Positions 25,729 through 62,625 of a stretch of DNA of 64,000 nt are shown in pieces (positions within the stretch are counted from its first letter, which is position 1; each line of letters opens with the position of its first letter). This DNA comes from Eledone cirrhosa (lineage: Eukaryota), in assembly GCA_964016885.1 (NCBI GenBank), contig OZ024743.1, positions 62,000,001 to 62,064,000 on the forward strand. Direction: 5' to 3'. The notes beneath the pieces are model-generated. The model did no database searches. It worked only from the letters and a program-made list of their open reading frames with translations, and had not been told where the DNA came from. Both the position numbers and the translations under genes were made by a program.

Positions 25729-26003
25729 CTATCCGTTAGGGTATAACGTGGGGCTGTAATACAGGAAAGTTTTGTGCAATTTATGTTTACAAGCCGAAAT
25801 TGCCTCAGATTTTTTGTTTAAGATGTGGTCTGTGGCGTAGAGTATTTCCAGGGCCTCAGCGGCGCAGAGGTCGCATGGTCTTTTATTTCCGTTATACGAT
25901 CTAGCCCGAGCTAGGATCTCCCAGTGTAACTTATATTGGGTGTGGTTGTCTTTCAGACTCCAGATATAAGCTGAAAGTGACGTCATATTCCTTCTTGGAT
26001 TTT
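25729..26003 (-). pseudogene. Penelope-like element GIY-YIG endonuclease C-terminal half, inverted upstream of the RT
   Basis: TSLSAYIWSLKD..YKLHWEILARARSY....CDLCAAEALEIL....ILNKKSEAISACKHK. Confidence 0.8.
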
Positions 26004-26071
26004 AGTCTTCAAATTTATTATTATTACTATTTGGCTCCCTCGGTTGAGCACTCTACTGACTAATATTCATC

Positions 26072-27670
26072 ATGCAGAAACAACATCTGAATATTTCCAC
26101 AAAGAACATACCCGTACCAAGCAGGAAAACATACCTAAAACTCCTGATTCAGAAAACAGACGCGTTCATTAAAAGGTTGCATTGGCGTGCCTTTTATTTC
26201 GATAATCCGCAAAAAGCAGACAACAAACAGGATAAATTTGGATTTAAAACCTATAATAACCCCCCGTGTAACCCAGCATTGCTACCCTTCGAAAATGATG
26301 TCTTGGAACTCATTCGGAGTATCAAATTTCGGAATAGGAGCAATTCCTTCCAGCAAGACCTGAAGAATAGAATTCGTTCTATTAAGGATTCTAATGCCGT
26401 GCACGTCCATTCCGACAAAACTGGCAACCTATATCAAGTGGAGCGCAGTACTTACCATCAACTACTACATAATGCTGTAACTAAGGATTACCGTAAAACT
26501 AATCGGTGCGTCATCAATGAAATCAACGATGCTGGGTTTAAAATCACATCTGATCTCAACATTCTGGACCGGACCGAACCTCTGGACCCTATTTCTCCCC
26601 ACTTTACCCTGAAGGATCACAAATCCAATTTTCCGAACAACCCCTCTATTCGGCTTATTAACCCTACGAAGTCCGATTTAGGTAGACTTAGTAAAACGAT
26701 TCTTGATAGAATTATACCTGAAATTAGAAGTTTGGCCCCTCTTGCACTGTGGAACAATTCTTTCGCGGTGATTGATTGGTTCAACGGCATATGTAACAAG
26801 GAACATTGCCGTTTTATCCAATTCGACATCAACAATTACTACTCCTCCATCACTTTACCACTTCTCCTTAGAGCTATCAATTTCGCTAAAACACTCACAG
26901 TGGTTAAGGATTTCGATGTTGATGTCATCATCAATGCCGAAAGTCGGTGATTAATTTCGACGACTCTATTTGAATTAAAAAACCCAATAGTACCCCATTC
27001 GACGTGAGTATGGGCGCTAGTGATTCTGCGGAGGTTACTGATCTTATCGGCCTTTTCCTTCTTTTCTCTATCAAGGACAAATTCCCCAACGCGGGCGGTG
27101 GTTTGTACCGTGACGATGGTCTTTTGTCCATAAATAAGTGCGGACCTCGTGCTTGCGACAGGTTCAGAAAAGAACTCACAGCCTTCTTTAAAGGCTTCAA
27201 CCTCTCTATACAGGTTGAGGCCAATCTCTCGGTTGTTAATTACCTCGACGTTACCCTCAATTTATTGAATGGGTTGTATTACCCGTATAGAAAGCCGAAT
27301 GATACGCTTAATTACATAAGTAAGCATTCCAACCATCCTGCCAGCATAACCAAGAACCTGGTAAGAAACGTTTCGTTGAGGCTTTCCCGTCTTTCCACTA
27401 ACGAGAGTATTTTCAACGACCATTCCACTTATTACAATGAAGCTCTTGCTCGAAGTGGATTTGTCGTTAAGGTAGCGTATACAGAGTACGAAAATAGACC
27501 TAGAAGAAATAGATCCCGTCGCATTTGTTGGTATAACCCACCATATAATATGGAGGTGGCCACACCATTAGCTAAGTTCTTTCTTTCCCTTATTACGAAG
27601 CATTTTCCCCCTACACATAAATATAGTAAAATTTTTAATAGAAATACTATTAAAATTTCTTACTCTACAA
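26072..27670 (+). pseudogene. Penelope-like retroelement reverse transcriptase (frameshift ~26938, TGA for Trp at ~26971, truncated after ISYS)
   Basis: STKNIP, SDKTGNLY, TLKDHK.NF.NNP..RLINP.KS, FIQFDI..YYSSI, FDVSMG, GLYRDDGL, NYLDVTLNL, SNHP, WYNPPY, IFNRNTIKISYS. Confidence 0.92.
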
Positions 27671-27939
27671 AAATAATTTGTCGAGCCAAAATTAGCCAAA
27701 ACTGCTACTATAGTTCATAGTGACGGTTCGGCTGCTGTCTTCTTAACAAAACACTTCTCACTGATTAACCTCGATGTTACGTGATTAATTCTTTTGAATT
27801 TGCCACCGACGCAGTAGGCAGTGATTTTTTTCAATGACTTGGAACCTAGTCCACGCTTTGCTTTTTTCCATCCACTGAATTATTTTTGTATAAATTACCT
27901 GTGTCCACGCATTGCCTGGAAACTTAGCTGAGAATAGAC

Positions 27940-28354: not shown

Positions 28355-28545
28355 AATAAACCTTTCAAGGATTTACACAAATCCAGCCTCCTGTCATTTC
28401 ATTATAATATTTAACTCCGTAATAGCACCACCAACTACAAAAACAAAGACGGTTGAACTGCTTTACGTTGAGTACTCTCTATATTATTGCATTACGATTG
28501 ACCATACGGAATAGACCAGCTCTATACAGTGGTGAACCTCAAACC

Positions 28546-28598
<53 letters not shown>

Positions 28599-28602
28599 AA
28601 TG

Positions 28603-29098
28603 TCGACTCTGGATGTCGGTGAGCATGTCCAGCCAACCTCAGTCTCCTCTGTGTCACTTTTGAGCTGACTTTTGGGATGCTCCCATACAGCTCTGAGTTT
28701 TTCATCCTCAGTGTATACCAATTAATGTTCCGAGCCATCCTCAGCATTCTCGTGTAGCACCCATCCACCATCTCAGTGAGTTTCTTGGTCAGTGTCCAAG
28801 TCTCAGACCCATACAGCAGCACAGACTCCACTACAGCAATGAAGAGGCGGATTTTCAGGTCTCTACGAAGGTCCGACTTCCACACCGATCTCAAGCTGTG
28901 GCACGCCGCCCAGGCCTTGCTCTTCCTCTCAACCACATCATCTTCCGTATTCCCAATCTTTCCTCCCAAATACAGGAAGTTCTCAACCAATTCCAGCGGC
29001 TTCCCGCCTACATTAGTGATCCCCTCTGGCTTCTCAACATTCTCTACCAGATATTTTGTTTTAGTCTCATTCATTCTCAGCCCCACACTCATCGACAC
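28603..29098 (-). pseudogene. RTE-type LINE RT C-terminal fragment (inverted 5' part)
   Basis: VGLRMNETKTKY..ENFLYLG..VESVLLYGSETWTLTK..DGCYTRMLR..RRLRLAGHAHRHPE. Confidence 0.9.
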
Positions 29099-29104
29099 AG
29101 TCTC

Positions 29105-40035: not shown

Positions 40036-41191
40036 TGGGGATTCTTTTCTTTGTTTTGTGCCTCTCCTTTGTTCTGTCCTACGCCATCCCATGACTCTCT
40101 AATACCTGATCCACCGAAACTCAGCTGTTTCGGATCACACCAAAATCAACATACTGATTGCGGATTTAGTAAGGGTGATGAGGAACGTGTCCCGCGTGTG
40201 CAACCCCAAAGAATTAGAGAGACACATACAACACTTCATCCACCGTATGCAGTTCTCTGGCTATAATCAGAGAGATAAGATCAGAGTATATAGAGGAGCC
40301 AGAACCAAATGGGAAAAAATGGGAAATAATGATACAAATGGGACCTGCCATTGTATAGGAGCAAATTTTGGAATATAATAGAAAGAACTAGGAATAAGGT
40401 TAATAGAATAAACTCATGGTATGATAGCAATAAATACCAGAGTGTAATGTCCATCAATACAACCCCTAGAGGTCAACTAGCTTACAAATTTAGAAGGGCC
40501 CTATATAAACTTAAACTAAATATTAAGATAGTGGAAAGCCCAGGTACTTCCATAAAACACTTATTAGTAATACACACCCTTTTGAAAGACTTCCCTATAT
40601 AGATAAGGAAATGCATAATCTGTAAGCTAAGTCCCCATATTAACTGTAAAACTAGAAACATAGTATATAGCATAAGATGTACTGAGGGACAATGTAAAAA
40701 TAAGAATATAATGCACATAGGTGAGACAGCTCGTAGCATAGGAGAATGATTAAATGAACACTGGCGAGAACTCCAAGATAGAAAAGACTCATCAATACTC
40801 CACCAACATGCTAAAATAGAACATAAGGGCAAATTAGAGAACATAGAGATAAAAATAGAATCTACACAGAGAAAAGACGCAATGCTTAGACAAATCACAG
40901 AGGCAATAAACATAAATGAACTCCAACCAAAATTAAATAGAAAACATGAATGGAATAGCAACATCACAACTTATAATTAAGGACAAAATGAAAAACACAC
41001 ACACATAGAACAAACAACTAACTAGTAACATGTAAATAAACAAATAAATAAACAAATACAAACAAACAAATAAAAACACACACAGACACCCGGATGTAAC
41101 ACAAGCGCAAACTAAGCACACAATACACACAAAAACAAGATGGCGTAGGACAGAACAAAGGAGAGGCACAAAACAAAGAAAAGAATCCCCA

Positions 41192-48972: not shown

Positions 48973-49217
48973 ACTCACTCTCTCTCACTTTCTCTCTGTG
49001 ATATTTGAATCTACTATGATTTGGGCTTATCTTATTCCTATATATATATATATATATTAGAATTGGAGCTCTGAAATAGCAATATATATATGGATGTATA
49101 TATAATGTATTTTGCAATACACTTTATGCTTAATTAAAAGCATTTTGAAGACCGTAAGCTATTGTTTTAGAGTAGTGACAAATTCACTTACTTTGATCTC
49201 AGCAAACAGGGGAGATA

Positions 49218-49262
49218 AGCCGACAAGGTCTTGTTTCGCTTTTGTTGAAGCTTATCAAGGCT
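49218..49262 (-). ncRNA. Type I hammerhead, U3-A8 variant (mirror copy)
   Basis: Reverse complement of 49671-49715 with one loop III change. Confidence 0.8.
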
Positions 49263-49670
49263 AACTACTCCCTCCTGTCTACCGAGATCACTGATGTTAT
49301 ATTCTTATAGAATTCTAGTAAATAATCAGGAACTGATTATACAGAGCGGTTGTTGGTCAGGCAGAAATTAAAAATTAGAATTGGAGCTCTGAAATAGCAA
49401 TATATATATGGATGTATATATATAATGTATTTTGCAATACACTTTATGCTTAATTAAAAGCATTTTGAAGACCGTAAGCTATTGTTGTAAAGTAGTGACA
49501 AATTCACTTACTTTGATACATCCATATATATATTGCTATTTCAGAGCTCCAATTCTAATTTTTGCTTTCTGCCTGACCAACAACCGCTCTGTATAATTAG
49601 TTCCTGATTATTTACTAGAATTCTATAAGAATATAACATCAGTGATCTCGGTAGACAGGAGGGAGTAGTT

Positions 49671-49715
49671 AGCCTTGATAAGCTTCAACAAAAGCGAAAC
49701 AAGGCCTTGTCGGCT
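49671..49715 (+). ncRNA. Type I hammerhead ribozyme, U3-A8 core variant
   Basis: AGCC-TTGATAA-GCTT caacaa AAGC-GAAACAA ggcc TTGTC-GGCT; stem I extends via GGGAG/CTCCC. Confidence 0.82.
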
Positions 49716-49911
49716 TATCTCCCTTGTTTGCTGAGATCAAAGTAAGTGAATTTGTCACTACTCTAAAACAATAGCTTACGGTCTTCAAAATGCTTTTAAT
49801 TAAGCATAAAGTGTATTGCAAAATACATTATATATACATATATATATATGTTTTTGCATGTCAGTTAGATTAAAACTTACAATGATTGGCATTATATATA
49901 TATATAAACAC

Positions 49912-50005: not shown

Positions 50006-50048
50006 TCTTTTCTGAAGACCCTGTGATAAACAGGCGAAACGCCAGAGT
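50006..50048 (+). ncRNA. Decayed hammerhead motif
   Basis: CTGAAGA-cCCTGT gataa ACAGGc-GAAAC; NUH triplet not intact. Confidence 0.45.
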
Positions 50049-50087
50049 AACAAGACTCATTATTCAGCCTTAACAAAATGAATATAT

Positions 50088-57776: not shown

Positions 57777-57870
<94 letters not shown>

Positions 57871-57993
57871 TGTATGTATAGTATATTTGGCAATATACCG
57901 TATGTTTAATAAAAAAACATTTAGAAGACCATACGCTATCAGTTTTAAAGTAGTGACTATGTAACTTACTTCATTTCGGCGAAAGAAGGGAGA

Positions 57994-58039
57994 GGAGCTG
58001 ACAGTCTGTTTCACCCTGGTTGGCGTTCATCAGAGCACC
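57994..58039 (-). ncRNA. Type I hammerhead in a truncated relative (57870-58045) of the 310/318 bp families
   Basis: GGtGCT-CTGATGA-ACgCC aacca GGGT-GAAACA gac TGTC-AGCtCC; flank CATTTAGAAGACCATACGCTAT..AAGTAGTGAC matches 49141-49180. Confidence 0.78.
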
Positions 58040-58043
58040 AATC

Positions 58044-58106
<63 letters not shown>

Positions 58107-60559: not shown

Positions 60560-60625
60560 TATTTTGTCTGATGAAGGCATAGCATATTGTTAATATGATA
60601 TCCCCGAAATATATATAATGAAATA
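60560..60625 (+). ncRNA. Type I hammerhead ribozyme (family shared with 47991)
   Basis: TATTTTGT-CTGATGA-aGG.ATA.CATATT..AATATG.TAT.CC-GAAATATATATA-ATGAAATA; same downstream tail AATAAATATGGTTTTATAAATATAG. Confidence 0.72.
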
Positions 60626-60665
60626 AATATGGTTTTATAAATATAGTTTTCCATTTATTTAATAT

Positions 60666-60696
<31 letters not shown>

Positions 60697-60817
60697 ATAT
60701 AGACATAGAATATTCGAAAATATTCTGTATGTTTATAATAAACATTTTGAAGACCTAATCGCTATAGAATAGAATACGTCACGTATTACAATTAGATTCT
60801 CGATAAAAGCAAGGGAA

Positions 60818-60860
60818 GTAATCTACGCGTTTCATTCTTGTTAGAAATCTTCAGGACTAC
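60818..60860 (-). ncRNA. Minimal type I hammerhead (identical copies 61128-61170, 61438-61480, 61748-61790)
   Basis: GTAGTC-CTGAAGA-tTTCT aaca AGAAt-GAAAC gc GTA-GATTAC on minus. Confidence 0.88.
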
Positions 60861-62119
60861 ATATCCAGTGCTTTTATCGAGAATGACACAGCTAGAGACT
60901 TATAGAATACTTAGCTGTGTACAGGAACTGGTTTGAAAGAGCGGTTGCCGGTCCGGCAGAAATTAGAAATTGGAATAAATGCTCTGAAATAGCGATATAT
61001 ATGTGAATATAGACATAGAATATTCGAAAATATTCTGTATGTTTATAATAAACATTTTGAAGACCTAATCGCTATAGAATAGAATACGTCACGTATTACA
61101 ATTAGATTCTCGATAAAAGCAAGGGAAGTAATCTACGCGTTTCATTCTTGTTAGAAATCTTCAGGACTACATATCCAGTGCTTTTATCGAGAATGACACA
61201 GCTAGAGACTTATAGAATACTTAGCTGTGTACAGGAACTGGTTTGAAAGAGCGGTTGCCGGTCCGGCAGAAATTAGAAATTGGAATAAATGCTCTGAAAT
61301 AGCGATATATATGTGAATATAGACATAGAATATTCGAAAATATTCTGTATGTTTATAATAAACATTTTGAAGACCTAATCGCTATAGAATAGAATACGTC
61401 ACGTATTACAATTAGATTCTCGATAAAAGCAAGGGAAGTAATCTACGCGTTTCATTCTTGTTAGAAATCTTCAGGACTACATATCCAGTGCTTTTATCGA
61501 GAATGACACAGCTAGAGACTTATAGAATACTTAGCTGTGTACAGGAACTGGTTTGAAAGAGCGGTTGCCGGTCCGGCAGAAATTAGAAATTGGAATAAAT
61601 GCTCTGAAATAGCGATATATATGTGAATATAGACATAGAATATTCGAAAATATTCTGTATGTTTATAATAAACATTTTGAAGACCTAATCGCTATAGAAT
61701 AGAATACGTCACGTATTACAATTAGATTCTCGATAAAAGCAAGGGAAGTAATCTACGCGTTTCATTCTTGTTAGAAATCTTCAGGACTACATATCCAGTG
61801 CTTTTATCGAGAATGACACAGCTAGAGACTTATAGAATACTTAGCTGTGTACAGGAACTGGTTTGAAAGAGCGGTTGCCGGTCCGGCAGAAATTAGAAAT
61901 TGGAATAAATGCTCTGAAATAGCGATATATATGTGAATATAGACATAGAATATTCGAAAATATTCTGTATGTTTATAATAAACATTTTGAAGACCTAATC
62001 GCTATAGAATAGAATACGTCACGTATTACAATTAGATTCTCGATAAAACCAGTTCCTGTACACAGCTAAGTATTCTATAAGTCTCTAGCTGTGTCATTCT
62101 CGATAAAAGCACTGGATAT

Positions 62120-62162
62120 GTAGTCCTGAAGATTTCTAACAAGAATGAAACGCGTAGATTAC
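62120..62162 (+). ncRNA. Minimal type I hammerhead (second copy 62430-62472)
   Basis: GTAGTC-CTGAAGA-tTTCT aaca AGAAt-GAAAC gc GTA-GATTAC. Confidence 0.88.
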
Positions 62163-62625
62163 TTCCCTTGCTTTTATCGAGAATCTAATTGTAATACGTG
62201 ACGTATTCTATTCTATAGCGATTAGGTCTTCAAAATGTTTATTATAAACATACAGAATATTTTCGAATATTCTATGTCTATATTCACATATATATCGCTA
62301 TTTCAGAGCATTTATTCCAATTTCTAATTTCTGCCGGACCGGCAACCGCTCTTTCAAACCAGTTCCTGTACACAGCTAAGTATTCTATAAGTCTCTAGCT
62401 GTGTCATTCTCGATAAAAGCACTGGATATGTAGTCCTGAAGATTTCTAACAAGAATGAAACGCGTAGATTACTTCCCTTGCTTTTATCGAGAATCTAATT
62501 GTAATACGTGACGTATTCTATTCTATAGCGATTAAGTCTTCAAAATGTTTATTATAAACATACAGAATATTTTCGAATATTCTATGTCTATATTCACATA
62601 TATATCGCTATTTCAGAGCATTTAT

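Follow-up and report, generated by a model that had tools for sequence, protein, structure and literature searches.

The insertion at 49038..49849 of the window is very probably that of a non-coding retrozyme of about 318 nt with Penelope-type ends, whose type I hammerhead carries U3-A8 in place of the canonical C3-G8 pair, a state present in about 5,000 copies that selection for self-cleavage has likely maintained. The window is the whole 64,000-nucleotide stretch of the Eledone cirrhosa genome analysed here (assembly GCA_964016885.1, contig OZ024743.1, positions 62,000,001 to 62,064,000). Judged from trees of genomic copies, the U3-A8 state has arisen more than once within the family, and it has likely reverted once to C3-G8. 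We tentatively go further, to a reading that we place somewhat short of an even chance: a single lineage toggled its 3-8 pair three times, each paired state rising to copy numbers in the hundreds or thousands while mismatched states were never amplified, with the inactive intermediate crossed by means of the partner's core in a double hammerhead.

Two inverted retrozyme copies in a TA repeat

A sequence-only reading of the window had placed a retrozyme at 49058..49838 and had reported UUGAUAA cores with intact stems in both copies. The element is real, and on re-reading the sequence both cores are as described, with stems I, II and III paired. What needed correction was the layout: the copies are not a tandem pair but inverted, diverging copies of a 318-nt unit within (TA)n, and because they lie head to head the locus carries one ribozyme per strand and is likely a dead end as a source of monomers. 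The parts of the insertion are as follows.

49038..49057, no strand: (TA)n target at the left end of the insertion
49056..49517, minus strand: main arm, 1.45 units of the 318-nt element, against (TA)n
49516..49849, plus strand: inverted arm of about one unit, facing the main arm head to head and running into (TA)n
49669..49717, plus strand: type I hammerhead, plus copy (U3 at 49675, A8 at 49680)
49216..49264, minus strand: type I hammerhead, minus copy (U3 at 49258, A8 at 49253, C17 at 49222)
49643..49739, plus strand: long hairpin extending stem I and enclosing the ribozyme (z=-5.6 against shuffles, for 49632-49742)
49194-49290, minus strand: mirror copy of the long hairpin
49742..49747, plus strand: GTAAGT, a splice-donor-like motif about 30 nt past the cut site

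The main arm is 5'-truncated 24 nt downstream of a predicted cleavage site and has a 3' end of the longer type (+165) with a tail, and the inverted arm has one of the shorter type (+137); the right end of the insertion also enters TA repeats, at about 49839-49849. In the plus copy, stem I (AGCC, 49671-49674) is followed by the UUGAUAA core (49675-49681), by stem II (49682-49695; GCUU/AAGC closed by a hexaloop), by GAAA (49696-49699) and by a stem III formed by a 12-nt palindrome (49699-49710), and the cut is predicted after C17 at 49711. The two hammerheads differ by one base in loop III, and the copies are 97.6% alike over 294 nt. Both have the build of a type I hammerhead, with three helices around the core N3-U4-G5-A6-N7-N8-A9 / GAAA / UH and stem I open. 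A relaxed hammerhead descriptor run over both strands of the window returned four matches, of which only those at 49675 (plus) and 49258 (minus) are U3-A8. Rfam's top model on a 651-nt stretch was HH9 (23.2 and 22.8 bits, E 0.003-0.004), with scores below the gathering score of 52, and a scan of the whole window, swamped by microsatellites, gave no hammerhead among the 150 of 197 matches listed. The GTAAGT motif is retained in lineages A, B, D and E of the family and absent from C.

Two related elements lie further along the window.

57858..58045, minus strand: truncated copy of sister subfamily B, core CUGAUGA (C3-G8), C3 at 58033
60685..62619, no strand: family C array of 310-nt tandem units plus an inverted arm, core CUGAAGA (C3-G8), 6-nt palindromic stem III

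These had been put forward as canonical C3-G8 homologues at 57994 and 60818. Both cores are indeed C3-G8; the description of the first has to be amended, as its hammerhead (57994-58037) is 5'-truncated beside the core and has one stem II mismatch, unlike the other copies of subfamily B, which are intact. The first C3 of the family C array is at 60854 on the minus strand, in the hammerhead at 60818-60860, and stem II of this family begins with a U-U mismatch. Many family C loci have 310-nt units that are 100% identical, which marks the family as very young; it is probably still active. Four further hammerhead-like C3-G8 motifs, outside the element family (17010, 47999, about 50011-50060 and about 60567-60630), are likely remnants of other Penelope pseudo-LTRs.

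Copy number and linkage of positions 3 and 8

A DNA search of the genome, in which 40 of 1,850 candidates were scored, gave 138 matches spread over many contigs; tandem copies are spaced by 318 nt, and inverted partners occur. The same 318-nt period is seen in another locus, L004, and arrays of the family reach 6.5 units; at the family level, these are non-coding tandem units in the 170-400 nt range with one hammerhead each, as in non-LTR retrozymes. The window's own subfamily was counted with a 34-letter pattern that left positions 3, 7 and 8 free, which had 470 exact matches in the genome against none for the reversed pattern, a difference beyond chance. U3-A8 is fixed in this subfamily (467 of 470, the others being two with a base other than U at position 3 and one U3-G8, with no C3-G8), so that the alternative named in the sequence-only reading, a C3-G8 family consensus with U3 and A8 occurring independently, does not describe it. 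For the superfamily, counts were anchored on a downstream block common to the relatives, again with no matches for reversed controls, and gave 20,451 C3-G8, 4,975 U3-A8, 107 U3-G8 and 101 C3-A8. Positions 3 and 8 are thus linked across genomic copies, as had been proposed (r2=0.95; 208 mismatched among 25,634, about 8,145 being expected under independence). The warning that searches with CUGANGA would miss the variant was equally apt, as about one fifth of the superfamily's ribozymes (4,975 of 25,634) would be overlooked. By hand count, family C made up 89 of the first 100 C3-G8 matches and likely supplies most of the 20,451, and about 3 of the first 100 U3-A8 matches were not ribozymes. Linkage within a clonal family mostly reflects descent, and we therefore place the weight of the argument on two or three independent double swaps together with the covariation of the stems.

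The mismatched class is itself smaller than it appears. By a rough rule, 24 of 60 mismatched matches that were fetched resemble chimeras at inversion junctions, so that 208 overstates the number of true single mutants. The antisense strand of the unit holds core-like words that inversion junctions use as microhomology (L087, L095, L127 and similar loci), and this generates false mismatched cores. Of the 36 mismatched copies that are real, 13 share their locus with another unit, which is canonical in nine cases and has the same U3-G8 in four (from two insertions). An apparent amplified C3-A8 subfamily (L114, L115) was rejected, both copies sitting in a larger duplicated block, and no amplified subfamily with a mismatched 3-8 pair was found in the backgrounds sampled. 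Contigs from three other organisms span the core, at low depth in two of them, and positions 3 and 8 are not among the differences listed; lineage A may therefore occur beyond this genome.

History of the 3-8 pair

The tree was built from 66 full-length copies, taken from 72 clusters of 231 paired-core copies with six outgroup clusters omitted, and with positions 3 and 8 masked; the copies had been chosen by a pattern that demands most core bases. It takes the form of a ladder, from F, G and family C (C3-G8) to D and E (U3-A8), then to B and B2 (C3-G8), and finally to A (U3-A8), which includes the window's element. This places both paired states within one superfamily and bears out the earlier proposal of core covariation inside a single element lineage. 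Families F and G are two other abundant retrozymes with C3-G8 cores; their stem III is a 6-nt palindrome, and they are colinear, if distantly, with the superfamily. Examples are the following.

L069:870-1300: family F or G example
L195:70-500: family F or G example
L237:560-880: family F or G example

With the full unit, the tree calls for three changes of the 3-8 state, each forced by starred branches. Tests on the full unit, with positions 3 and 8 masked, reject one origin of U3-A8 (AU p=3.6e-7) and, with less force, a clade uniting D and E (p=0.011). When the ribozyme region and the outgroups are left out, a single origin is still rejected (p=2.3e-5) and two changes suffice. Two swaps are therefore firm, and the reversal hinges on the root. 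Divergence among copies, estimated from 2-22 copies per group, is 0.114 in D2, 0.085 in E1, 0.071 in E2, 0.062 in B, 0.04-0.06 in B2, 0.043 at the root of A and 0.025 in young A, with one D branch being younger (0.05), and these ages favour the order U3-A8, C3-G8, U3-A8 along one lineage.

Lineage D has U3-A8 in 80 of 82 copies and C3-G8 in none, and the E1 background (n=44) has 39 U3-A8, three C3-G8 and two others. In the 28-letter context of the last switch, which contains both paired states and scarcely any mixed ones, a hand count of the first 100 of 119 matches gave 70 C3-G8, 24 U3-A8, two C3-A8, no U3-G8 and four others. The two groups at this switch are separated by 9-10 fixed differences, all within the ribozyme hairpin.

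Probable selection on the ribozyme hairpin

Among 16 chosen representatives, 16 of 19 stem pairs have been altered on both sides, and 88% of cells pair, compared with 73% after shuffling and 35-47% after sliding. Changes per site on internal branches are 1.47 in the ribozyme hairpin against 0.44 elsewhere, and terminal rates are alike (3.0 and 2.5). Nine core positions (U4, G5, A6, A9, G12-A15.1 and U16.1) show no change on internal branches, in rows that had been selected by a core-demanding pattern; two further samples, of 96 and 98 copies, were drawn with anchors outside the core, and in these, broken cores are limited to single loci or arrays. Taken together, the sequence patterns suggest that the U3-A8 pair is likely retained by selection for self-cleavage. 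A comparison of shared with rare changes in the subfamily was not significant (core 0 of 15, other positions 32 of 162; p=0.13). Some arrays share a core-breaking change, as with an A9G common to all four units of L330, and two U3-G8 tandem pairs exist, so that an intact core is dispensable for some insertions.

The hairpin from -45 to +70 relative to position 3 has changed about three times faster than the remainder of the unit between subfamilies in all lineages, with 116 of 175 changes in 37% of the sites. A-to-I editing was rejected as the driver of this rapid change, as there is no excess of A>G (A>G 19, G>A 19, T>C 20, C>T 14).

Insertion ends and the probable Penelope connection

Of about 150 runs, 52 have their 3' end at one fixed position, +139 from the cut site, and 33 at another, +165. 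Inverted arms for the most part use one of the two positions each, and the cut site is read through in arrays that reach 6.5 units. Fixed 3' ends combined with read-through arrays exclude a cut linear monomer as the template, whereas a circle or an uncut multimer fits. Variants unique to an array's locus are common to all units in nine cases, to some units in 18 and private in 232. The copies show 5' truncation, an inverted 5' copy, a one-sided tail and a microsatellite target, as expected of a non-autonomous Penelope-like element.

The 5' ends are less informative. In an older sample, in which some events are inverted pairs and not independent, 11 of 70 lay within 5 nt of the cut site (p=0.005), nine of these being assigned to U3-A8 lineages, and 24 of 70 lay in -5..+20 (p=3e-4); polymerase stalling in the hairpin could account for this excess. 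In the window's subfamily 5' ends are nearly uniform, and an 11-nt interval picked post hoc holds 7 of 85 (p=0.03). The genomic 5' ends thus lend weak support to cleavage.

Other Penelope-like remains are present in the window, together with a fragment of another class of element.

25732-27720: broken Penelope-like element of a very large young family
40482-40970, plus strand: degraded 3' end of another Penelope-like open reading frame
28484-29104, minus strand: open reading frame fragment that we take to be from a LINE-type reverse transcriptase

The element at 25732-27720 presumably has a reverse transcriptase followed by a C-terminal GIY-YIG-like domain; a Pfam search of its two window reading frames returned no families. 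Its family comprises 55,781 candidates, the best 150 of which are 93-96% identical, and several have a 713-aa open frame. An autonomous partner was not found there, as the blocks of our element occur in none of 20 loci of this family, and the 3' regions of six other Penelope-like fragments are, by eye, unlike the element. A relative of the reading frame at 40482-40970, in L263, has a downstream hammerhead of its own.

Predicted folding and a proposed cycle

The monomer is predicted to fold with a blocked core, positions 3-5 being paired to the stem III 5' arm, at -43.9 kcal/mol, whereas the active shape comes to -38.1; the same blocking fold is predicted in most lineages that were folded. Without constraints, the dimer is predicted to form a double hammerhead with open cores, its two units joined by the 12-nt palindrome; it reaches -96.5 kcal/mol, and two separate monomers -87.8. 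On these models, the U3-A8 RNA is predicted to be still able to cut itself, and the dimer agrees with an earlier model in which multimers are cut and monomer circles persist (PMC4209133). That position 3 should covary strictly, in a three-way manner, with position 15.4 of stem III is retained as no more than a hypothesis, since young U3-A8 subfamilies with CAUG or CAGAG arms break or wobble the blocking fold.

By analogy with known retrozymes, transcripts of tandem arrays would be cut into monomers, which would circularise and remain stable. A Penelope reverse transcriptase and endonuclease acting in trans may then prime at a fixed site and copy round the circle into TA repeats. Only Watson-Crick 3-8 pairs would found new subfamilies; a single mutant might be carried for one round, cut by its partner's core in the dimer, and would not amplify until the second change had occurred. 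In each half of the double hammerhead, one strand carries both position 3 and position 8, so that a mismatched unit could be cut by its partner, and we infer that this would explain why mismatched pairs are inserted yet never amplified.

Alternative explanations

Part of the case for repeated change could be accounted for by recombination, and we consider it somewhat unlikely, though far from negligible, that lineage A acquired U3-A8 as a short patch, by recombination or template switching from D or E, so that a functional ribozyme had one mutational origin. The root of A differs from its C3-G8 sister at -4, 3, 7 and 8 together, and because these four differences match an 11-nt stretch of E1, a patch is a live rival to new point mutations; there is also no position-7 intermediate in the first 100 of the 119 matches to the last-switch context, and lineage D had probably not yet stopped amplifying around then (pairwise divergence of 0.05, compared with 0.043-0.061). 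Such a patch would span 11 nt at most, however, whereas the remaining five or six fixed differences are spread over an 80-nt hairpin and mostly unlike D or E, the -4 base is already present in one C3-G8 sister copy (L133), and most lineages have U at position 7 in any case. The number of switches is a related matter: we regard it as unlikely that there were only two gains of U3-A8 (one in D and E together, one in A), both from C3-G8 ancestors and with no reversal. Without the ribozyme region and without F and G, two changes are enough and D and E fall on one side of a branch (91/74, not starred), and family C and the outgroups are long branches. Against this stand the rejection of a D plus E clade with the full unit (p=0.011), the joining of E1 to B plus A at 100/99, and the greater divergence of D2, E1 and E2 (0.114, 0.085 and 0.071) than of B (0.062).

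Both of these alternatives concern the path by which the pair changed; a third would dispense with cleavage. Here the ribozyme would be weak or inactive, U3-A8 would have hitchhiked in a master copy spread by Penelope from multimeric transcripts, and linkage would be shared descent. A high r2 can be obtained from clonal amplification alone, core-defective templates are occasionally inserted, and precedents point the same way: Naiad Penelope-like elements have spread without canonical hammerheads (PMC8557442), minimal hammerheads of Penelope-like elements are described as poor cleavers in vitro (PMC4209133), and U3-A8 gave no rescue in one mutational scan (PMC9901934). We nevertheless find this explanation improbable, given that two or three separate double swaps occurred with no single mutant being amplified, and that after the last swap stems I, II and III still changed on both sides while the core stayed unchanged. 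The reading that we prefer is that of a probably self-cleaving retrozyme whose 3-8 pair switched more than once.

Discussion

Position 8 is one of the two catalytic nucleotides of the hammerhead (PMC9901934), and a swap of the 3-8 pair has to pass through a mismatch; this family offers time-ordered natural ribozymes on both sides of that step. Neighbouring lineages are only 9-14 changes apart, nearly all of them in the ribozyme hairpin, which makes it testable which of the surrounding changes permit U3-A8 and whether complementation in a dimer bridges the valley. If the toggling reading is true, the genome holds a dated fossil record of compensatory evolution at the active site of a ribozyme. 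The family also adds to the evidence that Penelope machinery moves animal retrozymes and that their cleavage is under selection.

Several known systems bear on the pair itself. The C3-G8 pair has been confirmed (PMC3884650), and when one type III hammerhead was scanned by pairwise mutation, the G3-C8 swap was the only one to restore activity (PMC9901934), from which it follows that the activity of U3-A8 depends on context. Covariation of C3-G8 to U3-A8 has been described in several natural hammerheads, with in vitro activity cited there (Perreault et al. 2011, PMC3088659); those variants are scattered, and are reported there with neither lineage history nor copy counts, whereas here a single family is traced. 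A further precedent is in the hammerheads of the Cercyon Penelope-like elements of Schistosoma mansoni, for which about 1,300 U3-A8 matches have been given (Cervera and de la Peña 2014, PMC4209133) and whose supplement file 2 has the UUGAUAA heptamer. The U3-A8 swap itself is therefore already known from nature, including from Penelope-associated hammerheads. The Schistosoma motifs, as described, are minimal, mostly single and heterogeneous; unlike them, the motif described here is full-sized, its stem II having 4 bp and a hexaloop, its stem I being extended and its stem III being a 12-nt palindrome, and it lies in young tandem units with a traceable history.

As an element, it closely resembles the retrozymes of the metazoan non-LTR type (Cervera and de la Peña 2020, PMC7229834; Li et al. 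2026, bioRxiv 10.64898/2026.07.22.740005), which likewise are non-coding tandem units in the 170-400 nt range with one type I hammerhead each and thousands of copies, and for which, with a mussel example, a Penelope origin was proposed as it is here. Non-LTR retrozymes accumulate as circular RNA, as this element would in the proposed cycle. The word "covariation" does not occur in the accessible main text of either paper, nor does "ribozyme" in that of an octopus repeat annotation (PMC13282606), and a literature search that covered few subscription journals found no paper on this family or on repeated 3-8 switching in one lineage. A plant LTR retrozyme, with its LTRs, type III hammerhead and 4-bp target-site duplications, was rejected as a model in view of the type I topology, the tandem and inverted units and the TA flanks. 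Like the insertions of Penelope-like elements (Craig et al. 2021, PMC8557442), those of this family are truncated at the 5' end, include partial tandems and an inverted 5' copy, carry a tail at one end and lie in microsatellite targets; unlike those elements, ours has no open reading frame, and its tail offset is about 26 nt, against 30-40 bp. Beyond the published metazoan retrozymes, it has U3-A8 in about 5,000 copies, and its frequent 5' inverted arms, fixed 3' ends and TA targets are seen directly. What is new is thus the scale of the U3-A8 state and its repeated switching inside one dated family.
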